Notes: generated by a model from the sequence alone, not told the origin. A DNA stretch of 26,472 nt from a virus (IMGVR_UViG_2630968705_000016), one strand, 5' to 3'. Numbered from the stretch's first letter, positions 9,155-26,472 are shown. Numbers and translations: made by a program.

Positions 9155-9358
9155 ATGGCTAATTACAATTCATTAATTCGTCTCTCTGAAGTTCAAAGGC
9201 GAACTGGTTATAGCAAAGCATGGATTTATCGTCTTATTAGTCAGGGGAGGTTCCCTAAACAGGTAAAAATTGGAAGTCGGGCAATTGCTTTTGTTGAGTC
9301 TGAAATAGATGAATGGATTGAGAAGTGTATATTAGAATCTAGAGACGAGGTGGCCTGA
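9155..9358 (+). CDS. alpA: AlpA-family transcriptional regulator / excisionase-like protein
   Basis: 67 aa; IRLSEVQRRTGYSKAWIYRLISQGRFPKQVKIG...ESEIDEWI matches the AlpA/Vis HTH pattern. Confidence 0.85.
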   Translation: MANYNSLIRLSEVQRRTGYSKAWIYRLISQGRFPKQVKIGSRAIAFVESEIDEWIEKCILESRDEVA

Positions 9359-9789: not shown

Positions 9790-9801
9790 CGGAGACTGAA
9801 A

Positions 9802-10635: not shown

Positions 10636-10807
10636 GCCGACAGGAACACCACAACCTCAAAAACGCTACAAAGATGCCCACGGAGCACTCGTTACTGTCG
10701 AAAGCGTGTCTCACAACCGAGTGACGTTTTATCGCGACGGGTATCAATCGCCATGCGTACAACCGCTGGCGCGTTTCATGAAGGAGTTCGCGGAGGTTAA
10801 CCAATGA
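10628..10807 (+). CDS. Small hypothetical protein (59 aa), possibly DUF4222-like
   Basis: ATG at 10628 overlaps the upstream stop (ATGTTTAA). Sequence MFKPTGTPQPQKRYKDAHGALVTVESVSHNRVTFYRDGYQSPCVQPLARFMKEFAEV. Confidence 0.45.
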   Translation: MFKPTGTPQPQKRYKDAHGALVTVESVSHNRVTFYRDGYQSPCVQPLARFMKEFAEVNQ

Positions 10808-11241
10808 TACCCATCCAGAAGAAGACATTTTCACTGGCTGGTATGTCGCCAAAATCCAGAAATATGACGGCAAAGTCAGGCATTAATACAGCAGATACAA
10901 GCAAAGTTTATCATTTGCTGGTGGCCGGAACGGATGCCTTAACCATACCAGAAATCTCGGGCGATGATATTAGCCTTGAGAAGGTCAGCGGCTGCGCCAG
11001 AAAATTTCTGGTCGTAGATGATGTCTTCCGCTCGTGTAGTGACTCCACAAAAACATTCGTCCACGCGCGTGACGTTAACGAAATGAGCGCGATGTACTGT
11101 GCTTCTGGTTCTTCCAATAGTGAGTTTTCGGAGTCCATAAAAAAGAGCTTGCCGTTATGCGGCAACACGGTTTATGGTTATAAGGCACCTCATAAAACGG
11201 GTGCCGGGTTTCGCAGCCCGGAAATGTACGAGGCGACACAT

Positions 11242-11263
11242 GACGCGCCGAGCGTCTTTTTTT
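11242..11263 (+). terminator. Rho-independent terminator-like hairpin plus T7 run
   Basis: GACGC-GCCGA-GCGTC hairpin (11242-11256) followed by TTTTTTT (11257-11263). Lies inside the annotated 355-aa ORF 10804-11871. Confidence 0.5.
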
Positions 11264-11465
11264 GTGCCGTTAGCCAGACTCACACTTTTTTCAGTGATGT
11301 GGTTATAATCCGCGTCGCTTGCAAAATTATGGTGGGCTGGACAGGGCAGCCGAAAGGCTGGCCGGTTTCCTTGTACGCCGGTACTGCGAACTCTGTTCAG
11401 TCCACCACCAGCGAGTTTCGCAGCTCCGGTGGTGGGAAGAATTCCCAGTACAAGGAGGCTGCCAC

Positions 11466-11660
11466 ATGCTGGCTACTACCCCTACCCAAAAACCGCAATT
11501 TATCTGGATTATCGCCGCAGTTCGCCGCGATTGCCCGACAATTACCGCCAAAATTCATCATATTGCTGCCGAGTCTGAACGCGATGCTCGCCGTTCTCTG
11601 GTGCGCGATCACGTCTGCTTTTTTGCTGGTCGTATCCGCATGGAGGTGGCACATGATTAA
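11466..11660 (+). CDS. Small hypothetical protein (64 aa)
   Basis: ATG preceded by AAGGAGG RBS; codon usage (ctg, gcc, cgc) is much more gene-like than the overlapping frame of the long ORF. MLATTPTQKPQFIWIIAAVRRDCPTITAKIHH... Confidence 0.55.
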   Translation: MLATTPTQKPQFIWIIAAVRRDCPTITAKIHHIAAESERDARRSLVRDHVCFFAGRIRMEVAHD

Positions 11661-11871
11661 AACCTACGATGTGCATATGGATCCCCTCGAACGCACAAGC
11701 CAGATCATCACACTGACAGAAGTGATTAACGACATTCTGGTGAGCAACTCTCCCTCACGAGACGAAAGACTGAAGGCGTTACTCGCGATATTGGATCTCG
11801 CCGTTCGTGACGTTCATTTCCTGCTGGAAGGTGGCGAAATGCCAGGAAAAACGGGGGCAACCAATGAATAA
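11655..11871 (+). CDS. Small hypothetical protein (72 aa)
   Basis: Internal ATG of the long ORF with GGAGGTGG RBS; overlaps the upstream stop (ATGATTAA). MIKTYDVHMDPLERTSQIITLTEVINDIL... Confidence 0.5.
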
Positions 11872-12058
11872 CTCAATTAATGCCCCTCGACTTACGTCCG
11901 CACTTCAATTAATCGAGCAAGCAGCGGCTGTCCTGGTTGCTGTCAGTCTTTCGGCTGAAGAAATGGACGCTGCTGATGTCGTGGATGCGATTAAAGCGTG
12001 CTCATCTTTGGTTAACGATGCTCGTGCAGAGCTGGTAATTCTTGGTGGTGAAAAATGA
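11864..12058 (+). CDS. Small hypothetical protein (64 aa)
   Basis: ATG at 11864 overlapping the upstream stop; MNNSINAPRLTSALQLIEQAAAVLVAV... The track ORF begins further upstream at 11807. Confidence 0.5.
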   Translation: MNNSINAPRLTSALQLIEQAAAVLVAVSLSAEEMDAADVVDAIKACSSLVNDARAELVILGGEK

Positions 12059-12318
12059 ATATCAACTTAATTTATCGTCATCCGTGTGAGCTGGAAATTG
12101 AATCATTGCTGAGCCGTGAAGAGCCATATCCAGACACATTCACTCTTGCAGATCGCACGACTGAACGGCTTACCAGGGCGCGCACAGGTCTGGTTCATGT
12201 GATGAATGAGATTCTTCCATCGGTGGGAGGGGAACAGGCGACAGTAATCACTAGCTGGCTACAAAAAGTTACCTCTCTGATAGATATCAGTTTAATCGAT
12301 GCGGAGAGTGCGAAATGA
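12055..12318 (+). CDS. Small hypothetical protein (87 aa)
   Basis: Start overlaps upstream stop (ATGA); part of a coupled run of small genes. Confidence 0.55.
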   Translation: MNINLIYRHPCELEIESLLSREEPYPDTFTLADRTTERLTRARTGLVHVMNEILPSVGGEQATVITSWLQKVTSLIDISLIDAESAK

Positions 12319-12536
12319 CCAACATCCAGCTCATTGAAGCACAATGTCGCATCGAACAGGTTCAGACTGTTTTAGGGTTCTGGCTTGAAGGGGCCAGCCC
12401 CAGCAACAGAGACAAGTTAATGATTGGCGCGGTTATGTCACTGCTCAATGGCGTACCAGAAGCTATTCAGGAAGCAGACGAATTGTTGGGCAAATATGAG
12501 TTACAGAATCATTCAGGCGAGGCGAAACATGAATAA
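12315..12536 (+). CDS. Small hypothetical protein (73 aa)
   Basis: ATGA overlap with the upstream gene; same operon. Confidence 0.55.
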   Translation: MTNIQLIEAQCRIEQVQTVLGFWLEGASPSNRDKLMIGAVMSLLNGVPEAIQEADELLGKYELQNHSGEAKHE

Positions 12537-13131
12537 TTTCTTAACTTTCCATGCAGAAGCAACGCCTGACGGCGTAAACATCATGTACCGCAGCAACGAT
12601 GGCATGACAGAACGCGTTGAGGCCGTCTCATATATTGATGCCGTAAATCGTCTGGATGCCGGGGATTATGACGATAAACCAGATGAAGGTATGTCAATAC
12701 ATCTCGCTATAGCCGATGGCGGCAACCAGGGATATTTCGATTACACATCACAGCATAACGTCATTATGTGGAGATGGCTGATCGCAACAGTATTCATGCT
12801 GGAAATGAGAGAGGAAAACGGCACTGTCAGCATCATTGATGATACTGGCAACCCTTCCGAAGTGGCTGTTTATTCCAACGGCATCGTCGCCATGCCGCTG
12901 TATCCAGTAGCAGAGCGCCTCGCTATGGCAAACAACATTGAGGGCGCGATGATAGAACGTTTTGGCATCGAGTCTGGCACAGAACGCGCCATCATTTTCT
13001 ACAGAGCCATGATGGATGTGGAACAAGGAGCACTGACTCCATTTGGTCGTGAAACGCTTGCTGAACTTCACAACAGCTTTATAGCTGAACTGAATGAAAA
13101 CGGCATGCCAGCGGAACCAGTGACGCACTGA
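12526..13131 (+). CDS. Hypothetical protein (201 aa)
   Basis: ATG at 12526 overlapping the upstream stop (ATGAATAA). The track ORF begins upstream at 12424, but that would overlap the previous gene out of frame. Confidence 0.6.
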   Translation, partial: NMNNFLTFHAEATPDGVNIMYRSNDGMTERVEAVSYIDAVNRLDAGDYDDKPDEGMSIHLAIADGGNQGYFDYTSQHNVIMWRWLIATVFMLEMREENGTVSIIDDTGNPSEVAVYSNGIVAMPLYPVAERLAMANNIEGAMIERFGIESGTERAIIFYRAMMDVEQGALTPFGRETLAELHNSFIAELNENGMPAEPVTH

Positions 13132-13141
13132 GGATGGAACC

Positions 13142-13483
13142 ATGATTACTAAAAATTTCCGACTGAATGCGCTGGCAAATAAGTATGCGTCGGCACTGTA
13201 TAACCACATTACCTCCACCAGCGGCGGGGACTATTTCATGGTTGATGCGGACGGCGAGGCCGTCCGTGTGGAAATCGTCAATGGAGTAAAAGGCGTTCGC
13301 AGCCTGATCGATAGCTACACACTGGCAGCCATGAAAGTGTTCTACCCGCAGTGGGAAACCGTGGGGATCGAGCTTCTTGATCGTTGCGTCACTAAGGACG
13401 GATTGACTGACGTCGGGCGTGAGATATGGCAAAGCATGGTTAATGACATGGGCGCAACTGTAGCGGGAGGTTCTCATGCGTGA
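13142..13483 (+). CDS. Hypothetical protein (113 aa)
   Basis: ORF with GAGGATGG context upstream; the stop overlaps the next start. Confidence 0.6.
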   Translation: MITKNFRLNALANKYASALYNHITSTSGGDYFMVDADGEAVRVEIVNGVKGVRSLIDSYTLAAMKVFYPQWETVGIELLDRCVTKDGLTDVGREIWQSMVNDMGATVAGGSHA

Positions 13484-13847
13484 AAATGCAGAAATGGCGC
13501 TTAGCTCCGCAATCGGAGAGCAGGTGGCAAAGATTGCTGGTGCTGTGTGGATTCATAACCTTCATTCTACTGGTGAAGAGAAAATGGCAATTCAGACGCC
13601 AGAGGGACGCATCATTACTACATCTCTGAAGCCGTCAGATGTTTGTGATCTGATTTGCGCATTCATGTACCCAGCAATGAGGACTGCCCACGGCGATAAG
13701 TGGAAACTTGCGACAACCGCTGAATTTGATATGTGGCTAAACAATGATGGCATGCTGACTGATTACGGAATAACCAAGTGGCAGATGCTGGTTAGCCATA
13801 TCGCAAACGCTATAGACCACGTGGGGTACGGTGATGCGAAACATTGA
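13476..13847 (+). CDS. Hypothetical protein (123 aa)
   Basis: ORF with GGGAGG RBS upstream; 3' end overlaps the primase start. Confidence 0.6.
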   Translation: MRENAEMALSSAIGEQVAKIAGAVWIHNLHSTGEEKMAIQTPEGRIITTSLKPSDVCDLICAFMYPAMRTAHGDKWKLATTAEFDMWLNNDGMLTDYGITKWQMLVSHIANAIDHVGYGDAKH

Positions 13848-16590
13848 TCTTATCCGTCAGGTTATCAGTGCGTCTGAAAACAACTGGCCTCATGTGCTGG
13901 GCTGCCTGAACATAAATGTCCCTGACTCTCCGCGCCGTCATGCTCCCTGCCCTGCATGTGGGGGCAAAGATCGATTCCGGTTCGATGACAACGGGCGCGG
14001 TAGCTTCATCTGTAATCAGTGCGGCGCTGGTGATGGGCTGGATTTAATTAAACGCGTAAATAACTGCGACACAACAGAGGCGGCGCTTCTTGCCGCTGAT
14101 GTTCTGGGTATTGATTACCGGACAACGGAAACACCAGAAGCCACCAGCCAGAAACGGGAACAACTGGAAACCGAGCGCCAGCGACGCGAACAGGAGCGCC
14201 TGAAAAGGGCAGAGAAGGACGAACAACAAAGACGGGATACGTTTTCCCGTCAGTTTGATGACATGCGCAGAAAGGCTGTAAACGGCAAATCTGATTATCT
14301 GGTTGCGAAAGTGGTAGGTGATTTTACATTCCCCGTGTTGCCCGATGGATCTCTGTTGCTGGCGCTGGTGGATAAATCCGGCGCAGTCACAGCAGCACAG
14401 ACTATTACCTCACATGGTGAAAAAAGACTCCTGACAGGTTCAGCAAAGCGGGGGGCATATCACGCCATAAACGCACCAGAAACAACACAGAGCATCTTAA
14501 TCGCAGAAGGGCTGGCAACGGCATTATCTGCCCATTTAATTCGTCCAGAGGCGCTGACAGTGGCGGCGATTGATGCCGGGAACCTGTTATATGTCGCCCA
14601 GGTACTGCGGGATAAATATCCTTCAGCACAAATCATCATTGCTGCGGATAACGACCACAGCGAAGGAAGACAAAACACGGGGAGAATAGCAGCAGAAAAA
14701 GCAGCTTTATCTGTTTCTGGATGGGTGGCATTACCCCCGACAGATCACAAAGCAGACTGGAATGATTACCACCAAAAACACGGCATTAAATGCGCCACAG
14801 AAGCGTTCAATAAGTCAATGTACCAACCACAGGGTAATGGCGTGAAACAGGAGCCACAGACCATTGAGGGAAGCGATTTTAAGGTTATGGATACCGACCC
14901 ACTGAAACCAAGAATAGAAAGCCGCGAGGATGGTATTTATTGGGTATCTCCGAGAGCTGACAGCCAGAGTGGAGAAATCATCAATAACGAAAGCTGGTTA
15001 TGTTCTCCGTTAAGCGTTATCGGTACTGGCAGAGACGATAAAGACCAGTATCTCATTCTTCGCTGGCTGTCGTTTGGTTCTGAAACGCCGACAACCGCTG
15101 CCATTCCACTGGCTGATATTGGTGAACGTGAAGGATGGCGCACACTTAAAGCTGGTGGGGTAAATGTCACGACCAAAAGCAGCCTCAGAGCAATACTGGC
15201 AGACTGGCTACAACGCAGTGGCTCTCGTGAATTGTGGCGTGTTGCTCATGCCACTGGCTGGCAATGCGGAGCGTACATCATGCCTGATGGGGAAATCATC
15301 GGAACACCTGAAAATCCTGTGCTGTTCAGCGGGAGAAGCTCAGCCGCAGCCGGATATACCGTCTCAGGGAGCGCGAAAAGCTGGCGTGATAACGTGGCGC
15401 GTCTGGCCTTTGGTAACTATTCAATGATGACCGGGATCGGCGCAGCACTGGCAGCGCCATTGATTGGGCTGGTGGGCGCTGACGGGTTCGGCATTCATTT
15501 CTATGAGCAGTCGAGCGCAGGTAAGACCACCACGGCAAACGTGGCGAGCAGCTTATACGGCAACCCTGATTTACTGCGGCTGACGTGGTACGGAACCGCG
15601 CTGGGGCTGGCAAATGAGGCCGCCGCCCACAATGACGGACTAATGCCGCTTGATGAAGTTGGTCAGGGCGCTGATCCTGTCAGCGTTTCACAGTCTGCCT
15701 ATGCGTTATTTAACGGTGTAGGGAAACTGCAAGGCGCTAAAGATGGTGGAAACCGGGATCTAAAACGTTGGCGTACAGTGGCAATCAGCACCGGAGAAAT
15801 GGATTTAGAAACATTTATCGCTACTTCCGGGCGAAAAACCAAAGCCGGGCAACTGGTGCGACTGCTGAATATTCCGTTGAGTAAAGCAGTACGCTTTCAC
15901 GATTACCAGAACGGAAAACAGCACGCAGACGCACTGAAAGACGCTTACCAGCATCACCACGGCGCGTCCGGGCGTGAGTGGATTAAATGGCTGGCAGACC
16001 ACCAGCAACAGGCTATTAAAACCGTTCGTGATTGCGAAAGCAGATGGAGAAGCCTGATCCCATCCGATTATGGTGAGCAGGTTCACCGTGTAGCCGCGCG
16101 ATTTGCCATTCTGGAGGCCGCATTGTTGTTAGGCGAGGTTGTAACAGGCTGGGATGCTCAGACATGCCGTGATGCGATACAGCACAGCTATAACGCATGG
16201 TTGCGTGAGTTCGGCACAGGTAACAAAGAGCATCAGCAGATTATTGAACAAACGGAGGCATTTCTTAATGCCTATGGGCTTAGCCGTTTTGCACCATTTT
16301 CATACAGCCCGGCAGATTTGCCCATCAAAGATTTAGCCGGATACCGTCAGCGTGGAGAACATGACGAAAGCCCAATGATTTTCTACACATTCCCGGCCAC
16401 ATTTGAAAAGGAGATCGCATGTGGTTTCAACGCAAAACAGTTTGCTGAAGTGTTGAAAAAAGCCGGGATGCTAACCCCACCAAACAGCGGTCGTGGATAC
16501 CAAAGAAAATCACCACGTATTCAGGGACGACAAATAAACGTTTATGTACTCAATTACCAGCCAGGAGATTATAACTCATCTGAAGAATGA
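13831..16590 (+). CDS. Primase-helicase (P4 alpha-like: zinc ribbon + Toprim primase + P-loop helicase)
   Basis: 919 aa. CPACGG...FICNQCG zinc-binding motif; Toprim-like AEGLATA and IIIAADNDHSEG (DxD); Walker A SSAGKTTT and Walker B-like LMPLDEV. Start could be the GTG at 13831 or the ATG at 13834. Confidence 0.9.
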   Translation: MMRNIDLIRQVISASENNWPHVLGCLNINVPDSPRRHAPCPACGGKDRFRFDDNGRGSFICNQCGAGDGLDLIKRVNNCDTTEAALLAADVLGIDYRTTETPEATSQKREQLETERQRREQERLKRAEKDEQQRRDTFSRQFDDMRRKAVNGKSDYLVAKVVGDFTFPVLPDGSLLLALVDKSGAVTAAQTITSHGEKRLLTGSAKRGAYHAINAPETTQSILIAEGLATALSAHLIRPEALTVAAIDAGNLLYVAQVLRDKYPSAQIIIAADNDHSEGRQNTGRIAAEKAALSVSGWVALPPTDHKADWNDYHQKHGIKCATEAFNKSMYQPQGNGVKQEPQTIEGSDFKVMDTDPLKPRIESREDGIYWVSPRADSQSGEIINNESWLCSPLSVIGTGRDDKDQYLILRWLSFGSETPTTAAIPLADIGEREGWRTLKAGGVNVTTKSSLRAILADWLQRSGSRELWRVAHATGWQCGAYIMPDGEIIGTPENPVLFSGRSSAAAGYTVSGSAKSWRDNVARLAFGNYSMMTGIGAALAAPLIGLVGADGFGIHFYEQSSAGKTTTANVASSLYGNPDLLRLTWYGTALGLANEAAAHNDGLMPLDEVGQGADPVSVSQSAYALFNGVGKLQGAKDGGNRDLKRWRTVAISTGEMDLETFIATSGRKTKAGQLVRLLNIPLSKAVRFHDYQNGKQHADALKDAYQHHHGASGREWIKWLADHQQQAIKTVRDCESRWRSLIPSDYGEQVHRVAARFAILEAALLLGEVVTGWDAQTCRDAIQHSYNAWLREFGTGNKEHQQIIEQTEAFLNAYGLSRFAPFSYSPADLPIKDLAGYRQRGEHDESPMIFYTFPATFEKEIACGFNAKQFAEVLKKAGMLTPPNSGRGYQRKSPRIQGRQINVYVLNYQPGDYNSSEE

Positions 16591-16615
16591 GCTTCTTCAT
16601 GTGCGTAGAAAAGGT

Positions 16616-16726
16616 GTTGGTTCAGTTGGTTCAGTTGGTTCAATTTGTAAAGAGTATTGTTTTATAATGATTTTATTCTTTTTATTGAACCAACACTGAA
16701 CCAACAACACGGTATTTTGAACCAAC
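16616..16726. repeat. Iteron cluster 1 (putative replication origin)
   Basis: Three perfect tandem GTTGGTTCA 9-mers (16616-16642), an AT-rich spacer, then three TGAACCAAC inverted copies (16686-16694, 16697-16705, 16718-16726). Begins 26 bp after the primase stop. Confidence 0.75.
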
Positions 16727-17046
16727 ACAATGTGACTGAATTGATGCGCACAACACCTGGCTGGCATCAGAGAGTGTTTTACGAGACTTTCGTAAAATCC
16801 TGTGTACAAGGGCGTGACGTTTTTGAAAGTGAGCACTACGAAATTTTCGTAGTTCAAAAAACAGCCTCTGAGAAGTTGTTATGCCTGTTCAGCAAACCAT
16901 CCGCATAGCTGATCGCGAATCAAATTACCAATGGAGCCAGAAGCAAGGGCAGAACTGAAAAGCGCCTGCCGTGAAGAGTAATGCGACACCATAAATATAG
17001 TTTTTAGAGTCCATAAAAAACCTGTCAAAACCTGACACACAGAACG

Positions 17047-17080
17047 ATGCCACCAGCTACTGAGCGGTGGCATTTTTTTG
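17047..17080 (+). terminator. Rho-independent terminator
   Basis: Perfect 8-bp stem ATGCCACC/GGTGGCAT with an 11-nt loop, followed by TTTTTTT (17074-17080). Confidence 0.7.
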
Positions 17081-17174
17081 TGCTATTTGTTTCATATTTT
17101 GCAATTACGATGATGAATATTGCGATTTGTGAAACTATAATAACTGTTGTTTTATACAGTTCTAAGGGGGCGTT

Positions 17175-17336
17175 ATGGCTATTTCAGTAAAGCCGGTATT
17201 GATAAGTGAGAAGCAAATGGAAGCGATAAAGAAAATTCAGGAAGAGCAGCGTAAAAAATCAGGAATTGGAGTAGCGCCAACTCTGCATGAAATTGCACGA
17301 GGGTTAATAGATAAGGCGCTGGCAGGCTGTATGTGA
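17175..17336 (+). CDS. Small hypothetical protein (53 aa), possible DNA-binding regulator
   Basis: Strong RBS AAGGGGG 5 nt upstream of ATG; MAISVKPVLISEKQMEAIKKIQEEQRKK... Not on the ORF track because it is under 60 aa. Confidence 0.5.
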   Translation: MAISVKPVLISEKQMEAIKKIQEEQRKKSGIGVAPTLHEIARGLIDKALAGCM

Positions 17337-17352
17337 AAATGGATGGCATCGC

Positions 17353-17814
17353 ATGGAACTAAAATTTATTGATAACCCTGTGCGATTACAGGCCTTTCTT
17401 AACGAGCCAGGCAATACCGAAAATATTGTTGAGCCGGGGCACACGTACTACATCAAGCCTGATGCGGTATATCTCGGCATCTACGAAGGATTAGTGCTGG
17501 CTGGCGTTCATGAAGTGCGTAACTTCTGGCATAGCGTTGTTGAATGCCATGCGGTGTACGACCCCGGATTCCGTGGTGAATATGCACTGCAAGGGCATCG
17601 ATTATTCTGCAAATGGCTTCTCGAAAACTCACCATTCCTTAACAGCATTACCATGGTTCCTGACACCACCAAATACGGACGGGCAATTATCCGTTTGCTT
17701 GGCGCTACCCGTGTTGGTCACCTTGATGATGCTTATATCAGATGTGGTAAACCCGTCGGCGTAACGCTTTATCAGTTAACTCGGCAACAATATAAGGAAT
17801 TCAGCGAATGTTAA
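17353..17814 (+). CDS. Hypothetical protein (153 aa), first gene of the ejection-like cassette
   Basis: ORF coupled to the downstream gene (ATGTTAA overlap); no domain recognised. Confidence 0.7.
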   Translation: MELKFIDNPVRLQAFLNEPGNTENIVEPGHTYYIKPDAVYLGIYEGLVLAGVHEVRNFWHSVVECHAVYDPGFRGEYALQGHRLFCKWLLENSPFLNSITMVPDTTKYGRAIIRLLGATRVGHLDDAYIRCGKPVGVTLYQLTRQQYKEFSEC

Positions 17815-18485
17815 TTACCCACATAGCTCATAAACATCTCAATCGTGCCGTATACGAAAAAGGCGGTGATGGTGGTGCCTCTAAAGCTCAGGCGAAGGCC
17901 CAGCAGCAGGCAATTGATTTGCAGCGCGAGCAGTGGAATACGGTGATGAATAATCTCAAGCCGTATGCAGAAGTCGGATTGCCTGCTTTACAACAACTAC
18001 AAGGACTGATGACTCTGGAAGGGCAGAATAAAGCCGCGAATGATTTCTTTGGTTCTGGTTTATATAAAACACAGGCAGATCAGGCCCGTTATCAGAACCT
18101 TGTCTCAGCAGAAGCTACCGGGGGGCTTGGCTCAACAGCTACCAGTAACCAGTTATCTTCCATTGCGCCCATGCTTTATAACAATTGGCTCAGTGGGCAA
18201 ATGCAAAATTATGGAAACCTGCTAAATGTCGGGATGAATGCGGCATCAGGGCAGGCAACGGCAGGGCAAAACTACGCCAATAATACCGGACAACTCTTGC
18301 AGGGGCTTGGCGCTATTCGTGCAGGTCAGGCGCAGCAGCCATCCAGTCTTGCGCGTGGTATTGGTGGGGCAGCATCAGGCGCTTTAGCGGGTGCGCAACT
18401 TGGTTCCGTTGTTCCTGGAATAGGAACTGCGGCCGGCGCTATTGGTGGTGGGCTTATTGGTCTTGTTGGGGGGCTTGGATTCTAA
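17808..18485 (+). CDS. Hypothetical protein with glycine-zipper-like C-terminus (225 aa), internal-virion/ejection-like
   Basis: Q/A/N/G-rich; C-terminal GIGGAASGALAGAQLGSVVPGIGTAAGAIGGGLIGLVGGLGF suggests a membrane-inserting glycine zipper. Coupled to flanking genes. Confidence 0.75.
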   Translation: MLITHIAHKHLNRAVYEKGGDGGASKAQAKAQQQAIDLQREQWNTVMNNLKPYAEVGLPALQQLQGLMTLEGQNKAANDFFGSGLYKTQADQARYQNLVSAEATGGLGSTATSNQLSSIAPMLYNNWLSGQMQNYGNLLNVGMNAASGQATAGQNYANNTGQLLQGLGAIRAGQAQQPSSLARGIGGAASGALAGAQLGSVVPGIGTAAGAIGGGLIGLVGGLGF

Positions 18486-19804
18486 TGGCGACATGGCAAC
18501 TTGGCGGGCTGCCTAGCATGGCACCGCAAAATGATAATGCTCCTCGTTCTTCCGTTCCTCAGCCTGTGCAGTATCAGCAGCAGCCAAACGTAGGTTTAAT
18601 GGCGCTACAGGGGCTAAGAGGCGTTGCTGAGATTAATCAGCAGGCGCAAATTTCCCAGCAGTTAAAAGAATATCAGGCACGGTTGGGTAGTGCGGTAGCT
18701 AATAATGATCGTGTTGGCGTGCAGAAGTTAATGGCCCAGTATCCCCAGTTTATGGCTGATTCTCAAAAACAGATGGGATTCATTGATGCTGAGCAAAATC
18801 GACAGACCGCTGACGCTGCCATGAATCTGCGTCTTGCGTCACAAACTGGAGATCCACTGACCATGCAGAAGGCCATTCAGCAGGCAAATCCAGTATTACA
18901 GCGATTTGGTCTTCCTGCTGAAGAGGTTTATCAGTCTTGGCAGAATGACCCACAGGAATTCAACAGAATCACTGACCTCATCCACCTCCATGCTGATCCA
19001 AATAGTTACTTTAGTGTTCAAGAGAAGCAGCAAGGGCAGAGCATTGCACAGCAGAACGCAGATACATCCGCATATAATGCTCAGGTTAATGCGGAACAGG
19101 GTAATCGACGTCTCGATATGGAGCAGTTCAAAGTCCTATCCGATAACCAACTACGCACGAGAGAAATGGTTCTGAAAGCACGACTTGGACGTGCTCAAAA
19201 TGACATCGAGAGAGACAAGCTCAATGCTGAACTGAGCAAGATACAGCAGGCGAAAGTGGAGAAGATGAACGATAAAATTAATACTGTTGCAGGTAACATC
19301 GACTCCTTGAACTCTGCGCTTGAAGTGGGTCATGAACTGGCGGGAATTGTAGGGAAACATCCTTCGGCCGTTACCCGCTCGCAGAACTATAACCCCCTGA
19401 CGCTGGGGTTTGGATTCCTTCCTGATGTAGCAGAAGACACACGAAGCCTACGCGCCAAAGCTGATGAATACAACCTAAAGGTTATTCTGCCTAGCCTCAA
19501 AGGGACTTTTGGCTCTAACCCAACCGAAGGGGAAAGGGCTGCCCTTATGCAATCTCAAAATGGCATTAAGTCAGCAACCAGCAATGAGGCATTTTTGCGA
19601 GAGTTGAATAAAGCGCAGGACGTAATTATTCGAATGCAGAAACGACAGATTGCCGGGCTCGGTATTCCTGTAACCAAATCTAAGGACGAAGAAACTGATA
19701 CCAAAATGCTGTTGCAGGATCCTTCACTGGTTAAGGATTATGTGACCGCACATGGCTATCTGCCGGAAAGTTACTATCAGGCAAAACTTAAGGGATGGCA
19801 ATGA
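18485..19804 (+). CDS. Hypothetical Q-rich protein (439 aa), internal-virion/ejection-like
   Basis: Start overlaps the upstream stop (TAATG); low-complexity Q/N/A-rich composition typical of phage internal core proteins. Confidence 0.8.
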   Translation: MATWQLGGLPSMAPQNDNAPRSSVPQPVQYQQQPNVGLMALQGLRGVAEINQQAQISQQLKEYQARLGSAVANNDRVGVQKLMAQYPQFMADSQKQMGFIDAEQNRQTADAAMNLRLASQTGDPLTMQKAIQQANPVLQRFGLPAEEVYQSWQNDPQEFNRITDLIHLHADPNSYFSVQEKQQGQSIAQQNADTSAYNAQVNAEQGNRRLDMEQFKVLSDNQLRTREMVLKARLGRAQNDIERDKLNAELSKIQQAKVEKMNDKINTVAGNIDSLNSALEVGHELAGIVGKHPSAVTRSQNYNPLTLGFGFLPDVAEDTRSLRAKADEYNLKVILPSLKGTFGSNPTEGERAALMQSQNGIKSATSNEAFLRELNKAQDVIIRMQKRQIAGLGIPVTKSKDEETDTKMLLQDPSLVKDYVTAHGYLPESYYQAKLKGWQ

Positions 19805-22521
19805 TGGCACAACTGACAGAAAAACAGAAAGCCTATTCCCGTCATCTCGATGAAAAATATGGTTTCCCATCAGGGACGATGGAAACATTAGTTGGCAATG
19901 AATCTAGTGGTAACGGAAGTGCCGAGTCACCGAAAGGAGCTAGAGGATTTGCTCAACTGATGCCCTCAGTAATGAGTGATGCTGGTTATCGTGGAACAGA
20001 TCCGCGCTCACTGCCATTTGAAAAGCAAATGGATATCGCAGCAAACCATCTCAATAAAGGAATGAAGCGATTTGGTGATATAGGTATGGCATTGGCTGGG
20101 TATAATTCTGGCTATGCTCGTATTAATGCCGTCAGAAACGGTAAATCTACACTGCCAGATGAAACGGCTAATTACGTAAGTAAATTTGCAGATGCCGGAA
20201 TAATCCCTGATGACAGTGAAATCTTGCAGTTTGCACAAACCAGTCAACATCGCAATCTTCAGCAGCCTGACTACTCAGAGCTTGATAAAGAAATCTCTCA
20301 GGTGGGAGATATTTCTGCATGGGAAGCAAAACGTCAGCAATTTAAGAACATAGAAGCAGGACTACCAACAGCCAGTTCATGGGAGCAGAAAAGAGCTCAG
20401 TTTCTCGCCGATGAAAATGCCGGGGAACCGCAGCAGCAAGTAGCCAAGTCTAACCTTAATCCTGAGATGGAATATCTTTCGCCAGGACTGAAAGCTGCGC
20501 CAGAGCAGATGGCCAGAGGGATTGCTAATATACCGTTTGATGTAATGGACGCAGGCGTGGGGGTAGTCAATGCGGCGCAATCAGCCGGAGCATGGGCAGC
20601 TCAGAAGCTTGGTGTGGGTGATGGCACATACACGCCCATATCACCTGTCTTTCGCCCAGTAGACCAACCTACAGATCCATACGCGCAGGCTGGTGAGCAG
20701 CTAGCACCTTACCTTATTACAGGATTAGGTGTAGGAAAGGCAGCTACCGCAGCTTCTTCAGTTGCCAACGCTCCACGTGCTGAACGTGCGGCCACAAAGG
20801 TGGCTAGTATGTTGGCAGAAAACCTGCCAGGTACATTGGTGAACGCCCAAAAGAACGGGCAGATCAGCCCAGAAGACCTAGCAAAAGAGACAGGTATTGG
20901 CCTAGCAGGATCGCTAGGAGCACGCGCTTTAATAAAGAGCGGACAGACAGCCAGTGACGTAATGCGAGATGTATTGCGGAGTAATACAAATCAATCAGGC
21001 CATGTGTTAGGGGCAGCAAATACTCTGGAAACCGCCAATGATGTATCGAAAGCAGCGCGTTCTGCCGTAGGCCGAGAGCATATCGCATCGCAGGCATCAA
21101 ACGTCAGAGATGATGTCGCTAAGGCGGCGAAAATCACTGGTATTAATATCAACACCCTGACGCCTGGAATGCGCTCAGGTAGTCGTGGAATTGCCCAAGC
21201 AGAAGGTGTTCTGGCATCAACTCCTGGGAATGTTCAGGATGCTCACCTTACGGCCTTCAATGAAATATCCTCAAAGTTGAATAAGCAGTTGTCTGATTTC
21301 GGTGCTGAGTCTGGAAGCGCATCAGAAAAAAGCGCAGCAATTAAAGAGCGCATCATCGCGAGCCTCAGTGATATGAAAACAGCAGAGAATATGGCATGGG
21401 CAGAACTGCGAAGCACGATGCCACGCGAAAGGATGAAAATGAGTAATGGGATGGCTGTCGTCCAAGCAGAAAAAGCAGCCAATGTTCCACTCAGCCCGGA
21501 GATGAAACAGTTTCAGGCTGCCAACAACCAAGGTGGCGGCATAACCTTCGACGGGATGAAGGCATGGCGTGCTAAGTTTGCTGATGCTGAACAAGCAAAC
21601 ACCCGGGCAGGTAAGGCCAATGCCGCCCGGATTGCCGGAGAAATGCGCAGAGCTATCACTGATGACATGCGCATCATGGCTGAAAAAGGAAACTTCCTCA
21701 CAGAATGGCAGAAAGCTAACGATCTCTCTAAAAGTTACATTATCGCCAAACAAAATGCCGAATCTGTTTTTGGTCGAGATCTCGCATCAGACGCTATGGT
21801 AAGAAAAGGTGCCGATACGCTTAAGGCATCCGCAAACACTGGAACGGGAGCTTTTCACCGTCTTATCTCCGCGCTGCCGGAAGCAGAACGCCAACCTGCA
21901 ATAGCATCTATTCTTCAGCATGCTGTGGCGCAGGGAGAGAAGGGAGGAATCGGTGAAGAGTCAGGTATCCAGTATTTTGCCAAGCTCATGACCCAGCAGA
22001 ATGTAAACGCCATCAGTCGTCATGCGCCAGATCTCGGTAGAATGATGAAAGAGTTCGGTGTACTCGCTAAAGCCAGTACCAGACCGCAGCGATACGTAGA
22101 GCGCACGGGAAGAACAACTGAGGCTCTCAAAACGCTCGATTCAGGCCTTCCAAAGATCGTCGGCGTGATTATGAACGGTGTTCAACAGTCAGGTGCGATC
22201 GCTGGAGGCTTTGGCGGTGGTGTAATTGGTTCGATTAGTGGTTTGGTTGCTGGTGGCGCGCTAAGAAATGCTGTGGCTAAGATTGGGGCGACAAGAAGTG
22301 GTCGATATGCGATAGAGAAAGCCGTTCAGGAAGCTACAAAAGCAGTGCGCGCAGGGGCATCACCAGCAGCGATCGCCGCAGCAGAGAAACGATTTTCGGC
22401 CAATAAAATTGCCATGAAAGCAATTCGTGATGCCGTTGGGGCTGAAGAATTCGTGAAACTGACAAGGGCCGGGATTGTAGCTACCCTCAGTGGCATGAAA
22501 GATGTTAGCGAATGGGAATAG
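19795..22521 (+). CDS. Large protein with N-terminal lytic transglycosylase (SLT) domain (908 aa), T7 gp16-like architecture
   Basis: N-terminal motifs ESSGN (catalytic Glu context), GFAQLMP and AGYNSGYA match SLT family signatures. The remainder is long and A/G/Q/S-rich with a glycine-rich segment (GAIAGGFGGGVIGSISGLVAGG) near the C-terminus. Confidence 0.88.
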   Translation: MAMMAQLTEKQKAYSRHLDEKYGFPSGTMETLVGNESSGNGSAESPKGARGFAQLMPSVMSDAGYRGTDPRSLPFEKQMDIAANHLNKGMKRFGDIGMALAGYNSGYARINAVRNGKSTLPDETANYVSKFADAGIIPDDSEILQFAQTSQHRNLQQPDYSELDKEISQVGDISAWEAKRQQFKNIEAGLPTASSWEQKRAQFLADENAGEPQQQVAKSNLNPEMEYLSPGLKAAPEQMARGIANIPFDVMDAGVGVVNAAQSAGAWAAQKLGVGDGTYTPISPVFRPVDQPTDPYAQAGEQLAPYLITGLGVGKAATAASSVANAPRAERAATKVASMLAENLPGTLVNAQKNGQISPEDLAKETGIGLAGSLGARALIKSGQTASDVMRDVLRSNTNQSGHVLGAANTLETANDVSKAARSAVGREHIASQASNVRDDVAKAAKITGININTLTPGMRSGSRGIAQAEGVLASTPGNVQDAHLTAFNEISSKLNKQLSDFGAESGSASEKSAAIKERIIASLSDMKTAENMAWAELRSTMPRERMKMSNGMAVVQAEKAANVPLSPEMKQFQAANNQGGGITFDGMKAWRAKFADAEQANTRAGKANAARIAGEMRRAITDDMRIMAEKGNFLTEWQKANDLSKSYIIAKQNAESVFGRDLASDAMVRKGADTLKASANTGTGAFHRLISALPEAERQPAIASILQHAVAQGEKGGIGEESGIQYFAKLMTQQNVNAISRHAPDLGRMMKEFGVLAKASTRPQRYVERTGRTTEALKTLDSGLPKIVGVIMNGVQQSGAIAGGFGGGVIGSISGLVAGGALRNAVAKIGATRSGRYAIEKAVQEATKAVRAGASPAAIAAAEKRFSANKIAMKAIRDAVGAEEFVKLTRAGIVATLSGMKDVSEWE

Positions 22522-22671
22522 ACGCTCTAACTAACAAAACCATAATAGCCAAGGACGGCATACTGATATTGAGCCAACTATCAAAATTCCATATCACATT
22601 ACGAGCCTGTGGCTTACATTCGCTTACAGTGATGATAATTTATAACCACGCAATTCTTAGGTGAGATTATC

Positions 22672-23370
22672 ATGATTAAAAATCTTCTTTTAATATTATC
22701 CCTGTCATTATTGGCTGGATGCGTACAAAAACCGTTAGTAACGGTCAATGCTTTATCTTCCGGGCAATCTGTCGGTAAGAAGTTCTTGATCATCCCCGCA
22801 AGCCAAGAACTTTGGAACACCAAACAGATTGAATACACTCAAATAGCTACGGTAGTAGCCGCCAGTTTATCAAGCCAAGGATATACACAAGTTAAAGATG
22901 AAAAATTGGCTGACCAGGTAATTCTCTTGAACTTTTTGAGAAGTGGGGCCATTTCAAATACTCGTAATGTAACCATCCCAATATACGGGCAAACTGGTGT
23001 GAGCTCAGCAACAACGTACGGAAACTCGAACACCACGTTCAATAGTTATGGTGGTGGCTACGGTACAGCTAATACCACTGGAACGGCAACAACAGTTTAT
23101 ACGCCTACTTATGGAATTACTGGCGCGTATAACACAACTGTGACGGACACGTTCTACGGCGCAGGGGTGATACTCCAGTCGTTTGATGCCAAGGCTTATC
23201 TCAATAATCGGCAGATTAATATGTTATGGAAAGTTGGTAGCTCAGTCGTCTCGCAACAGTCTGATGGAATTGCTGATTACAAAGGGTTGGCGAGAATAGC
23301 CGCTAGCTATGCCGGGAAAAATACAGAAGGTGATATAACTTTTAATGTTGACCCTAAAGCACCAAATTAA
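22672..23370 (+). CDS. Putative lipoprotein (232 aa)
   Basis: Signal peptide with lipobox LLAG|C; AGGTGAG RBS; T/G/N/Y-rich central region; lower GC than neighbours. Confidence 0.8.
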   Translation: MIKNLLLILSLSLLAGCVQKPLVTVNALSSGQSVGKKFLIIPASQELWNTKQIEYTQIATVVAASLSSQGYTQVKDEKLADQVILLNFLRSGAISNTRNVTIPIYGQTGVSSATTYGNSNTTFNSYGGGYGTANTTGTATTVYTPTYGITGAYNTTVTDTFYGAGVILQSFDAKAYLNNRQINMLWKVGSSVVSQQSDGIADYKGLARIAASYAGKNTEGDITFNVDPKAPN

Positions 23371-23377
23371 CTAATAA

Positions 23378-23427
23378 GCCCGGTACGCCGGGCATTCATG
23401 CCCCTATTATTCATGAATCGCTTTTTC
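23378..23427 (+). terminator. Terminator-like tandem hairpins downstream of the lipoprotein gene
   Basis: GCCCGG-TACG-CCGGGC hairpin (23378-23393), then ATTCATG...CATGAAT hairpin (23394-23418), followed by CGCTTTTTC. Confidence 0.4.
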
Positions 23428-23584
23428 TGGAAGGTATGCGACAAACGTTAAGTGACATTGCCTACACATTCGGGGCTCAAATCCGCTCCCAGTTGATGGG
23501 GCCGTTACAGTACGCGCATATCCGCTTTATGTGAAACAGGAAGATTTTTCTGATATCACTGCCACAGCAAAACACCAATTTCGA

Positions 23585-23600
23585 GACAAGTACGCGCGCG
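23585..23600. repeat. GACAAGTACGCGCGCG motif, copy 1
   Basis: Exact 16-mer with an alternating (CG) tract; a degenerate copy (GACCAGTACGCACACG) follows at about 23638-23653. Confidence 0.6.
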
Positions 23601-23870
23601 AGGGGTATCAGTTGCAAAATTTTTTGCAACTGCGTCCGACCAGTACGCACACGATGGCGGGGGATACCATAAAAGTGTTCTCTACATGAGACAGAGTGGT
23701 GGTGATGTGTTGATTATCGGCGTATATGCGCACAGGACGCGCTATGACAATGTTTTATGCGGGTACACCAATCACATGTATCTGACGTGATAAATCGCGT
23801 TACATGACATCTCATGTTGTGCTGGTGGTTATCACGACGTTCTGAATCTGGCCTTTGCCTGATATTTTGC

Positions 23871-23886
23871 GACAAGTACGCGCGCG
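23871..23886. repeat. GACAAGTACGCGCGCG motif, copy 2
   Basis: Exact 16-mer in the context ATTTTGCGACAAGTACGCGCGCGTAGCATC. Confidence 0.6.
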
Positions 23887-23914
23887 TAGCATCGACAGCA
23901 TACACATTGGATAT

Positions 23915-24136
23915 TCATTTTGTGACCAATGCGATAAGTAGCGGGATAAGAATTGATAAAATCAACAGGCCGATGATCCACTTTTGATTTTCACTGGCCT
24001 TATCTCTATTTTCATCAATCTTATCAATAATTCGACGCTCCAGGCCGTGCATATCACCGCGAATGGCAATCATCTCATTGCGAACATCCGAGAAGTGGTT
24101 GGCTTGATGTTCAATGTGTGGCGTTCTGCCTTTCAT
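23915..24136 (-). CDS. Small putative membrane protein (73 aa)
   Basis: AGGTGAGGA RBS on the minus strand; charged N-terminal region and C-terminal hydrophobic helix WIIGLLILSILIPLLIALV. Confidence 0.5.
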   Translation of the reverse strand: MKGRTPHIEHQANHFSDVRNEMIAIRGDMHGLERRIIDKIDENRDKASENQKWIIGLLILSILIPLLIALVTK

Positions 24137-24215
24137 TCCTGATCCTCACCTATCGTCACCACCTGCTGGTGTATAAAGGTATTGGCCCAAGCAGCTTTCC
24201 AATGGGCACTCATGT

Positions 24216-24671
24216 TTATACGCTGACCTTACAATCAATCACCGCTTTTAACTTTTCAGCATTGCTTCCCTGACGCTTCCACGCGCTGTAAATATCTTTA
24301 TCCCACGCTTTACCAGCTTTTGTTTGATAGCCTGCTTCATTGATCCGTTCAGCTATCACACGCCCATTATCAAATCCCTGTCGGATGGTATCGGCAATGA
24401 TCTTTATAACTGCCGTTTCGTTATATGGCTTTGGTGGGATGTTCGGCTTTCCGGCAATAAGCGACGCAGCAGCTTTTTCCATGCGCTCCACCAGCCCAAG
24501 CATTCGTGAATCAATAGACTTTTCCGGCTGTCCCAGCTTCATGCGAATCGCATCAACAAGCCAGGAGGTTTTATCCCCTCCAGAAGCGAGAACAGACCGA
24601 TTAAACTCATCCTGCAATTCAGATGGGATGCGGAACGCGACCAGATTAGATTTGCTCATTGCAAAGACCAT
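24216..24671 (-). CDS. Putative DNA-binding regulatory protein (RHH-like N-terminus), 147-151 aa
   Basis: N-terminus SNLVAFRIPSELQDEFNRSV...SWLVDAIRMKL has a beta-strand/helix/helix pattern; start is ATG at 24671 or 24659. Transcribed divergently from the PerC-like gene, with iteron cluster 2 between them. Confidence 0.65.
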   Translation of the reverse strand: MVFAMSKSNLVAFRIPSELQDEFNRSVLASGGDKTSWLVDAIRMKLGQPEKSIDSRMLGLVERMEKAAASLIAGKPNIPPKPYNETAVIKIIADTIRQGFDNGRVIAERINEAGYQTKAGKAWDKDIYSAWKRQGSNAEKLKAVIDCKVSV

Positions 24672-24773
24672 ATCAGTGAGTAATATCCATACAGTATATC
24701 ACTGTATAACACTGTTATACGCTCAAATATCAGCCAGAAAATAACGGGCCAATCACAAAGCTATCGCTGTGTT

Positions 24774-24894
24774 GTTGGTTCAGAGCTGGGCTGTGTTGGT
24801 TCAAAATGAGTTGATGTTGGTTCAATATTTTAGAAAAAACATAATAAAAACAACAATCTTTACAAATTGAACCAACTGAACCAACTGAACCAAC
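24774..24894. repeat. Iteron cluster 2 (inverted copy of cluster 1)
   Basis: GTTGGTTCA at 24774-24782, 24795-24803 and 24816-24824; AT-rich spacer; three tandem TGAACCAAC at 24868-24894. Its reverse complement aligns with cluster 1, with about 45 bp identical at the tandem end. Confidence 0.75.
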
Positions 24895-24930
24895 ACCTTT
24901 TTGCTTATCTATATAATCTGAGAGGCAGAA

Positions 24931-25212
24931 ATGATAAGGGACAGGAAAGCTGAAGAGCTGGAGTCAAAAGGGCTATACCGGAGAGCTGCCGCACGATGGA
25001 TGGAAGTCATGCTGTTATGCAGCGAGGACGATGATCGGGAATGGATAAAGCGCCGCCGTGAAACGTGTCTGGAGAACGTGAAGCGCCCGCCCGTGAAGGT
25101 TGAGGAATTTGGCGACCTGCATAAAGCTGTTACCGAAACGCAACACCGCATGGGGATAGCGCAACCGAACGGTAACGCCTTCCGGTTAAATGGCGGTAAG
25201 AGGCAAAGGTAG
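24931..25212 (+). CDS. PerC-family transcriptional activator-like protein (93 aa)
   Basis: GAGAGG RBS; MIRDRKAEELESKGLYRRAAARWMEVM... matches my recollection of the PerC/Pch N-terminal signature. Confidence 0.7.
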   Translation: MIRDRKAEELESKGLYRRAAARWMEVMLLCSEDDDREWIKRRRETCLENVKRPPVKVEEFGDLHKAVTETQHRMGIAQPNGNAFRLNGGKRQR

Positions 25213-25260
25213 ACCACCAGAGGGAAATCATCCTCTGGCTGGCGGTTTCTGGTATTTCGG

Positions 25261-25278
25261 GACAAGTACGCGCGCGCG
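25261..25278. repeat. GACAAGTACGCGCGCG motif, copy 3 (one extra CG unit)
   Basis: GACAAGTACGCGCGCGCG in the context TATTTCGGGACAAGTACGCGCGCGCGTAGCACC, sharing about 30 bp of context with copy 2. Confidence 0.6.
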
Positions 25279-25509
25279 TAGCACCCAATCGGTGAGGAAA
25301 TAGCGGCGACCTGAATGGTCAAAATCACAACGCAGCTATCCCCGTAAGCAGCGCTTAACGGAATAGCAGTAACCTGAATCCAGTGGGGAGGGGGTAGTCA
25401 AATCTCTACAGCCCTGACTATCCGGGACTGCCCGCCCCATCGTTTTTTTATACCCGCGAAAAATGAAATTTAATCCGGGCGTGTTTCATCCTTCCAGAGG
25501 GTATGACGT

Positions 25510-25695
25510 ATGACACCACGCGAAATAGCTTTATTGACCACCGCCAAACTGGAGCACGAAGGCCACCAGCTAACCCCGGCAGATCAACGGGAGATAGAAC
25601 GCTCAGTTAATGCCAATATAGCCCGGCGTGACAAATTTCGCGAAATGATGCGATCACCCGCCTACCAGTGGAAGAAGCCTGCGCCGCGCAGGTAG
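25510..25695 (+). CDS. Small hypothetical protein (61 aa)
   Basis: ORF with AGAGGG upstream; basic protein; no domain recognised. Confidence 0.45.
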   Translation: MTPREIALLTTAKLEHEGHQLTPADQREIERSVNANIARRDKFREMMRSPAYQWKKPAPRR

Positions 25696-26016
25696 ATTAC
25701 CTTTATTCACCTTTATATATTCGAACAACAAAACCTCTCGCAGGTCTCGCCAATAAAGGGATATAGCAGTAACTATGACCGCCGAATGGCAAAGCTACGA
25801 TGCAAGTCGCTGGTTTCCAAACTTGAGGTTTCCAGGACGGTTTCAACCAAATTGCGGATTATCAGCCAAACGCACCGGGTATCTTGCGCGGTGGATGGTG
25901 AGCCATCACGCAGAATCTTTAAATGGCATTTTACGATGGGCAATACCCGTGGTTATATGCGATTATTAACGGTAGTGGACAGTTATAGACGAAAACATAC
26001 GGCAGGAGATTGGATA

Positions 26017-26472
26017 ATGGCAGTTACAACCCTTAACAGCGTAGCGGATTACCTGCTTTGCTTTGCTCAAGAGCATGGGGATGTTATGACGCCGCTGAAA
26101 CTGCAAAAAATGGTGTTCTATGCTGATGCTTGGTTCATGGCGCTGAATGATGGCGAAGAACTGGTTGCTGACAAGTTTGAAGCATGGGTACATGGCCCTG
26201 TAGCCAGAGATTTGTATACCAGATTTGCAGATTACAAATGGCGCTCAATAGACGAAGAGATTGCCTGCCCTGAGTTACCTGCGAATGTGTCAAAGCATCT
26301 AAAGGAAATCTATGAGGTATTTGGCGGTTATACAGCTTATGAGCTGGAGCAGATGACGCACCAAGAAAAGCCGTGGCTGGAGGCCCGTGAAGGGGTTCCA
26401 TCAGATGCGCCGTGCAAGAATGTTATTGATAAAAGTGTAACGGCTGAGTTTTATCGTTCGATGGCTTCCTAA
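26017..26472 (+). CDS. Panacea/DUF4065-domain protein (SocA-like phage-associated antitoxin family), 151 aa
   Basis: AGGAGA RBS 8 nt upstream of ATG at 26017; LKLQKMVFYADAWFMALNDGEELVADKFEAWVHGPV resembles the DUF4065 core. The longer track ORF from 25786 has an implausible N-terminal extension. Confidence 0.7.
   Translation: MAVTTLNSVADYLLCFAQEHGDVMTPLKLQKMVFYADAWFMALNDGEELVADKFEAWVHGPVARDLYTRFADYKWRSIDEEIACPELPANVSKHLKEIYEVFGGYTAYELEQMTHQEKPWLEAREGVPSDAPCKNVIDKSVTAEFYRSMAS

Follow-up and report, generated by a model that had tools for sequence, protein, structure and literature searches.

A lipoprotein with a predicted fold of outer-membrane ring formers, encoded behind P22-type ejection genes, as a candidate superinfection-exclusion factor

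What does a lipoprotein gene do behind the DNA-ejection genes of a short-tailed phage? This question is raised by a stretch of viral DNA of 26,472 nt (IMGVR_UViG_2630968705_000016), analysed at its full length and hereafter called the window, in which a lipoprotein gene follows a P22-type ejection module. A sequence-only reading of this DNA had placed the gene in a prophage and suggested that its product may block receptors or DNA entry, a suggestion against which homology to a housekeeping lipoprotein family would count. To our knowledge, exclusion lipoproteins of phages and plasmids in Gram-negatives are few (Llp, Cor, and TraT), and in short-tailed phages only the inner-membrane protein SieA has been studied for exclusion. 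Our literature search found no paper on this lipoprotein family in phages and none on satellites with P22-type ejection genes.

The lipoprotein gene and its flanking signals

Single-sequence and profile searches both recovered homologs, and AlphaFold2 gave a confident model, showing that the gene is real. Sequence, homologs, and model together bear out the 232-aa lipoprotein ORF with a lipobox that the sequence-only reading had described (Table 1). By direct reading, the product begins with MIKNLLLILSLSLLAG followed by the cysteine, and this N-terminus has the basic n-region (M-I-K-N), hydrophobic h-region (LLLILSLSL), and lipobox (L-A-G-C17) of a signal peptidase II substrate, the lipobox being judged with the pattern [LVI][ASTVI][GAS]C. 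The codon of Cys17 lies at 22720–22722, and this residue is kept in at least 90% of alignment A1 (31 sequences). An Asp at position +2 bars a lipoprotein from outer-membrane sorting under the Lol-avoidance rule; because residue +2 is Val18 and Asp is absent there, this sequence rule predicts that the lipoprotein is destined for the outer membrane. Neither the sequence nor the AlphaFold2 model contains a transmembrane helix past the signal peptide.

Table 1. Positions of the ejection module, the lipoprotein gene, and associated features in the window
Feature	Position	Strand	Basis
P22-type ejection module upstream of the lipoprotein gene	17353–22521	+	Pfam and PHROG matches
DUF2824/gp14-like gene	17353–17814	+	Pfam/PHROG
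gp7 gene	17808–18485	+	Pfam/PHROG
gp20 gene	18485–19804	+	Pfam/PHROG
SLT-fused gp16 gene (908 aa)	19795–22521	+	Pfam SLT, E 1.1e-12; PHROG "DNA transfer protein", E 4e-121
Weak sigma-70-like site, TAGACG-16 nt-CATAAT (9/12 matches)	22519–22546	+	Sequence scan
Shine-Dalgarno AGGTGA, 7 nt 5' of the ATG	22659–22664	+	Sequence
Lipoprotein CDS (232 aa), stop codon included	22672–23370	+	ORF list, sequence, homologs, AlphaFold2 model
Signal peptide (aa 1–16) and lipobox LLAG-C, predicted acylated Cys17	22672–22722	+	Sequence
Charge-free Thr/Gly/Tyr/Asn-rich long beta-hairpin (residues 99–158)	22966–23145	+	Model, composition, conservation
Motif copy 1, P-I-Y-G-Q-T-G (aa 103–109), ascending strand	22978–22998	+	256 sequences: P103, G106, T108, G109
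Motif copy 2, P-T-Y-G-I-T-G (aa 145–151), descending strand	23104–23124	+	256 sequences: P145, Y147, G148, G151
GC-rich hairpin GCCCGG-UACG-CCGGGC, 8 nt 3' of the stop	23378–23403	.	Fold, sequence

The Shine-Dalgarno sequence found here also stands, in identical form, 5' of homologs in T7-type prophages. In five Enterobacteriaceae contigs (L002–L006, gene at 10001–10819), the homolog is annotated as a protein of 271–272 aa with a 40-residue N-terminal extension, so that the lipobox lies approximately 56 residues in. The 232-aa form, with AGGTGA before the internal ATG, very probably has the true start, and the longer annotation looks mis-called.

A gap of 150 bp separates the gene from that of SLT-fused gp16. 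Promoter-like sites occurred at chance level, with two found versus 4.3 expected in shuffles. On the 3' side, the GC-rich hairpin folds with a free energy of -16.4 kcal/mol (z-score -2.1) and is overlapped by a second hairpin, the whole being terminator-like on both strands with a poor U-tract.

The composition of the gene agreed with the sequence-only reading on two counts, and what this composition means proved to be different. As that reading had observed, GC content is lower than in the neighbouring genes (42.3% versus 49.5% in gp16, 47.7% in gp20, and 50.9% in gp7). Third-position GC, at 39.5% versus 40.9–45.2% in the ejection genes, is barely lowered, so the drop largely reflects amino-acid composition (Thr/Asn/Tyr codons) and little foreign codon bias; the view of the gene as foreign DNA is weakened, since its third-position GC is near that of gp16. 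The T/G/N/Y-rich centre was likewise found, residues 99–158 consisting of T, G, N, Y, or S to 75% versus 33% elsewhere in the protein, and none of these 60 residues is charged versus 27 of 155 in the remaining mature lipoprotein. We considered a low-complexity spacer or linker for this segment and rejected it; it is instead a confidently modelled beta-hairpin and the best conserved part of the family.

An island with ejection genes

The element that carries the gene spans positions 7513–26472 and runs past the end of the window. E. coli APEC E18005 carries this DNA as an island that adjoins tRNA-Thr and proBA and contains a P4-type integrase, an HTH regulator, AntA/B, ash, and a TOPRIM/DUF927 primase; the island is also described with an AlpA-like gene beside the integrase, AntA-B, ash, and primase. 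The only genes 3' of the primase are gp14, gp7, gp20, gp16, and the lipoprotein gene, followed by small cargo (PerC and Panacea), and no coat, portal, terminase, tail, or lysis genes are annotated in the island of APEC E18005. The complete prophage assumed by the sequence-only reading thus gives way to an island in which ejection genes are the sole virion genes, and which looks like a phage satellite supplying its own ejection proteins. The placement of the lipoprotein gene after an SLT gene and ejection genes stood up to Pfam and PHROG searches, which identified SLT-gp16, gp20, and gp7. The SLT lytic transglycosylase domain occupies aa 17–119, N-terminal in the gp16-type protein, and the same fusion of SLT and Phage_P22_gp16 is present in the P22-like prophages of two Serratia species (L007 and L076).

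Among 5,426 complete E. coli genomes, 76 (approximately 1.4%) carry the lipoprotein gene and 76 carry the 3' half of gp16, nearly all at 99% identity or above. Copies in E. coli NC101 and the APEC O78 strains are identical or 99.3% identical. The equal counts of gene and gp16 led us to reject the idea that the gene sits in a variable cargo slot in E. coli. Approximately 470 other partial matches in E. coli must fall outside both the lipoprotein gene and gp16. The ejection block with the lipoprotein gene recurs in L002–L006, L015, and L077–L079; of these, L002–L006 are Enterobacteriaceae contigs, and the block is also found in one IMG/VR contig. Pluralibacter carries it with either a DUF927 or a D5-type primase, showing that the primase type swaps.

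Several other features of the window were observed. Just 5' of the island integrase, two genes of low GC content (approximately 30%) at 821–3105 (+) match the Dazbog anti-phage system in PADLOC (DzbA, E 1.6e-54; DzbB, E 1.3e-7); beside them are a resolvase at 1–555 and an HTH transposase-like ORF at 3732–4376. Within the island, matches to the isrK Hfq-binding RNA (69 bits) and the C4 antisense RNA (81 bits) reach the Rfam gathering level at 11185–11262 and 11325–11412 (+), respectively, inside an ORF annotated "ash family" and downstream of the AntA/B antirepressor gene. This position suggests that the isrK/C4 region is a P1/P7-type antisense control element for the antirepressor. Two small minus-strand genes lie 3' of the lipoprotein gene: that at 23915–24136 (-) encodes a 73-aa product with a C-terminal hydrophobic segment, a match to phrog_6324 (E 6e-11), and a weak match to a holin PHROG (E 0.004), and that at 24216–24671 (-) encodes a 151-aa product with a weak PHROG match only. 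The distal end of the island carries variable cargo, consisting of a PerC-family transcriptional activator gene at 24931–25212 (+; E 1.2e-30) and a gene for a SocA/Panacea-domain protein at 25786–26472 (+; E 2.7e-17), which may serve as antitoxin in a toxin-antitoxin pair.

Family, predicted fold, and genomic contexts

A single-sequence search with the lipoprotein returned 37 homologs, which were exclusively enterobacterial down to approximately 39% identity and below that graded into carriers of Pfam DUF4136. With a 31-sequence profile, the search reached 3,823 representative clusters (653 with E ≤ 1e-30), and a species-level genome scan found family members in Proteobacteria, Verrucomicrobiota, Planctomycetota, Nitrospirota, Chlamydiota, Bacteroidota, and other phyla. 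The lipoprotein itself scored 14.2 bits (E 0.062) against the Pfam model of DUF4136 (PF13590), which is under the gathering cut-off of 32.8 bits, and 14 of the 31 sequences in alignment A1 matched DUF4136, while none matched TraT. A chain of homology connects it with bona fide DUF4136 members, and the core fold is the same; by transitive homology and fold, the lipoprotein belongs to a large DUF4136-related superfamily.

Comparison with TraT (PF05818) gave a Pfam score of 12.9 bits, under the 31-bit cut-off. In hhalign, the probability was 92.7% with signal peptides included and 26% (E 7e-4) on the mature regions. TraT family membership by sequence was rejected because the higher value came from the common signal peptide and lipobox, and with the fall to 26% on the mature regions only a kinship at the level of fold is retained. 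Searches of PHROGs, NCBIfam, and PADLOC with the lipoprotein yielded no match, Pfam and NCBIfam-level searches found no virulence-family match, and a PDB sequence-profile search gave chance matches only. blastn and tblastn searches of 50,697 deposited phage genomes, including the T5, T1, phi80, and N15 types, found no match, and the BFVD viral structures contained none to the lipoprotein model at E ≤ 0.001; the phage association therefore comes from prophages, islands, and IMG/VR contigs.

The AlphaFold2 model (mean pLDDT 86, pTM 0.68) consists of an alpha/beta core and a very long projecting beta-hairpin with strands at residues 94–124 and 132–172. Structure comparison matched the core to ring-forming outer-membrane lipoproteins, namely PelC, TraT, DUF4136, CsgG, and LptE, with PelC and LptE the closest. 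As modelled, the fold class is that of lipoproteins forming outer-membrane rings.

Per-column conservation showed the hairpin to be the best conserved segment family-wide. Eleven of its positions (P103, G106, T108, G109, T115, T141, P145, Y147, G148, T150, and G151) are invariant in the 31 sequences of A1, and the same positions are invariant or nearly so in a set of 256 sequences (at least 221 of 256 each). Both strands bear a single motif, P-x-[YWF]-G-x-T-G, and the strand numbering in the secondary structure of the model indicates that its two copies should lie roughly opposite each other. Charged residues make up 2% of the hairpin versus 21% outside it across the family. The hairpin tip (approximately aa 118–139) is longer by approximately 9 aa in the enterobacterial phage and island clade, in which the hairpin has 60 residues versus a median of 51. 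In Foldseek, the hairpin matched the stem regions of the pore formers aerolysin, lysenin, epsilon toxin, CDTb, and anthrax protective antigen, with E values near 1e-3 only. The descending strand has a Tyr/Ile face versus a Thr face, and overall hydropathy is polar and not classically amphipathic, which makes membrane insertion uncertain.

The sampled enterobacterial homologs (at least 39% identity) all lay on a phage, a satellite-like island, or an element remnant. Two Serratia species (L007 and L076) carry a 62–63% identical homolog within a full P22-like prophage with the gene order coat, gp4, gp10, gp26, gp14, gp7, gp20, gp16, lipoprotein, (arc and) tailspike. Between the island and the Serratia prophage, identity was 62% for the lipoprotein, 26% for gp14, 56% for gp7, 25% for gp20, and 44% for gp16, making the lipoprotein the best conserved protein of the ejection module. 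In Serratia nevei and two IMG/VR prophages (L012, L018, and L020), the gene directly follows those of T7-type internal virion proteins (phrog_1044 and phrog_342), and a tail fibre gene lies downstream. The lipoprotein ATG in these T7-type prophages is a few bases past the stop of the last internal virion protein gene, placing the two in a common operon. A podovirus-like contig (L022) shows the same order, with the lipoprotein gene after large virion proteins.

Other carriers include a lambda-like prophage, with the homolog between gpK and gpI/J, and a myovirus, with the homolog in the tail region. P4-type integrase/primase elements carry it as distal cargo without ejection genes, and a homolog is also present on a Vibrio island that encodes an integrase together with a reverse transcriptase. 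In Kosakonia pseudosacchari (L032) and K. quasisacchari (L033), a 63–64% identical copy at 10001–10693 immediately follows proBA and precedes TetR and ZinT genes. One of these copies stands alone just 3' of proA without an adjacent element and looks like a remnant, and the other closes a P4-type element with a D5 primase as its last gene. The lone copy is on the side of proBA on which the thrW island lies in E. coli. The Kosakonia copies lack ejection genes, and the lipoprotein gene can therefore persist without them.

More distant members occur in ordinary chromosomal settings, one of them right behind secA in a verrucomicrobial MAG, and mobile-element markers were found near 3 of 44 species-level loci, a lower bound because the marker test was crude and used a handful of query proteins. 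These chromosomal settings and the low marker count indicate that the ancestral function is not phage-related. A 200–234-aa ORF 5' of the Shewanella and Vibrio homologs (8221–8925 in Shewanella baltica, L027; 2493–3101 in Vibrio quintilis, L029) was considered as a possible partner or paralog; it is no paralog, as it showed no similarity to the family (hhalign probability below 2%); it has no Pfam match, and the family members beside it are chromosomal. No pel, lpt, or csg genes were found near the lipoprotein gene in the neighbourhoods of the island and the Enterobacteriaceae contigs.

Possible roles and comparison with known systems

The gene's slot, the TraT-like fold of its product, and carriage by mobile elements make superinfection exclusion by the lipoprotein plausible, which keeps alive the function suggested by the sequence-only reading; no known exclusion family was matched, and the coupling to a late operon speaks on the other side. 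The housekeeping homology that would count against exclusion was found in part, since the protein is DUF4136-related and distant members are chromosomal, whereas the enterobacterial homologs are borne by mobile elements.

We tentatively propose an outer-membrane ring lipoprotein, carried as cargo by phages and islands, that excludes incoming phages; its oligomerisation, topology, and exclusion activity are all parts that we infer. At the outer membrane, the subunits would form a ring in which neighbouring hairpins make up a barrel or collar, like the inner barrel of TraT and the channel of CsgG. Temperate phages and phage-dependent islands have captured the enterobacterial branch as cargo and most often carry it right behind the genes of DNA-ejection proteins. 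By altering the envelope of the carrier cell, the lipoprotein may halt incoming phages at an outer-membrane or periplasmic step, either because a surface component is masked or because the conduit of the ejection proteins is obstructed. Progeny could also be spared a wasteful ejection into infected cells or debris. A more specific form of this proposal, which we consider quite unlikely, is a ring-shaped guard with a TraT/CsgG-like charge-free barrel that obstructs the podovirus ejection conduit and would be the outer-membrane counterpart of SieA. Such a barrel would sit in or under the outer membrane and act against the conduits of P22 gp7/gp20/gp16 and T7 gp14/15/16; if true, this would explain why unrelated podoviruses and satellites with ejection proteins keep the gene right after their ejectosome genes.

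Sequence features point both ways on a simple moron expressed in lysogeny. Of the features of a moron, the gene has a terminator-like hairpin and lowered GC content; its third-position GC is barely lowered, its promoter-like site is at chance level, and the T7-type prophages have no intergenic space before it. Because the gene abuts the late operon in those prophages, it is not obviously a lysogeny-expressed moron, and the chance-level promoter, late-operon coupling, and poor U-tract, as judged from sequence, would all count against that simple form.

Several rival explanations were weighed against exclusion. It is rather unlikely that the gene is cargo for host fitness or virulence, changing the envelope (serum or complement resistance, robustness) with no action on phages. 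Serum or complement resistance has been reported for TraT and for lambda Bor/Iss, and this explanation draws on the TraT-like fold (TraT being annotated as a complement-resistance protein), on the presence of the gene in avian-pathogenic, clinical, and NC101 E. coli isolates, and on the Kosakonia copies, which lack ejection genes and thereby indicate that the protein can act alone. It does not, however, predict the repeated placement after ejectosome genes in unrelated podovirus lineages, and both the rarity of the gene in complete E. coli genomes and the lack of a virulence-family match in the searches above speak against it. A hitch-hiking ordinary envelope lipoprotein, which would handle polysaccharide or LPS (as PelC and LptE do) or support outer-membrane protein assembly and have no phage-specific role, is unlikely. 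This very large family spans diverse phyla and includes chromosomal members, its nearest folds, PelC and LptE, are housekeeping export components, and its hairpin motifs are invariant from Enterobacterales to Verrucomicrobiota, which implies a universal partner or a structural role. On the other hand, the sampled contexts of the enterobacterial clade are all mobile elements, the lipoprotein is the best conserved protein of its module and has a clade-specific extension of the hairpin tip, and pel and lpt genes are absent from the neighbourhoods searched.

Two further explanations tie the protein to the element's own cycle. A late-expressed helper, made with the ejection proteins and serving lysis or release (for instance at the outer membrane) or envelope preparation, would account for the common operon in the T7-type prophages and for the gene always accompanying the ejection module in E. 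coli. We regard it as improbable, since the same prophages keep lysis functions in separate cassettes, with holin and lysozyme genes and one ORF behind them, Kosakonia and P4-type elements carry the gene without virion or lysis genes, and o-spanins are small Pro-rich proteins unlike this one. A component of the virion or ejectosome, packaged along with gp7, gp20, and gp16, would fit the gene order, the one observation in its favour, and is highly improbable. P22-type heads assemble in the cytoplasm, and the Sec/SPII signal and lipobox direct the protein out of that compartment; moreover, the gene is also found in siphovirus and myovirus tail modules and in elements without virion genes.

Exclusion of incoming phages is the reading that we tentatively prefer, and the lipoproteins concerned may represent a new structural family of exclusion lipoproteins borne by mobile elements. 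The family is structurally distinct and strongly conserved and stands at the junction of ejectosome and tailspike in at least two unrelated podovirus types; siphoviruses, myoviruses, and satellites carry it as well. The lipoprotein, whose gene is easy to clone, is a candidate for a new mechanism of exclusion at the envelope, and a phenotype for the phage-borne copy would be a first handle on a diderm family of approximately 3,800 clusters with a near-invariant charge-free hairpin.

Comparison with known systems set the lipoprotein apart from each of them while revealing shared traits. By sequence, it falls outside the TraT, SieA, Cor, and Llp families. PelC and CsgG are ring-forming outer-membrane lipoproteins of exopolysaccharide and curli export, respectively; the present lipoprotein differs from them in having no sequence match, no pel or csg neighbours, and a polar hairpin. 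The lipoprotein domain DUF4136 (PF13590) is represented by the crystal structure 4f54 (BT2437). Llp (T5) and Cor (phi80, N15, and T1) are phage lipoproteins that inactivate FhuA. They resemble the present protein in being phage-encoded outer-membrane lipoproteins and act on entry, whereas they are much smaller than its 232 aa, and similarity to them was undetected in PHROGs and in tblastn searches of the 50,697 phage records.

P22 encodes SieA directly downstream of gene 16, and SieA targets gp16 and gp20 (PMC10883804). The lipoprotein gene occupies the same slot after gp16 in the window and in the Serratia P22-like prophages (L007 and L076). [quoted passage not shown]

TraT, the surface-exclusion and complement-resistance lipoprotein of IncF plasmids with decamer structures 9fs5, 9fsm, and 9e2v, shares the most with the present protein. 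Its core is LptE-like and carries two amphipathic Gly/Ala-rich transmembrane helices as an insertion, and in the decamer its long beta-hairpin makes up an inner barrel (PMC11733297, PMC12658005). Like TraT, the present protein, as modelled, would be an outer-membrane lipoprotein borne by mobile elements, with the same core and a long hairpin. In contrast to TraT, the present lipoprotein lacks the two Gly/Ala-rich transmembrane helices, with nothing but beta-strand modelled from residue 94 to 172, it has a longer hairpin without charges, and it is carried by phages and islands, whereas TraT is carried by tra operons. Although its sequence and its lack of the transmembrane helices place it outside TraT, the predicted fold suggests that, among known systems, the lipoprotein would work most like TraT.
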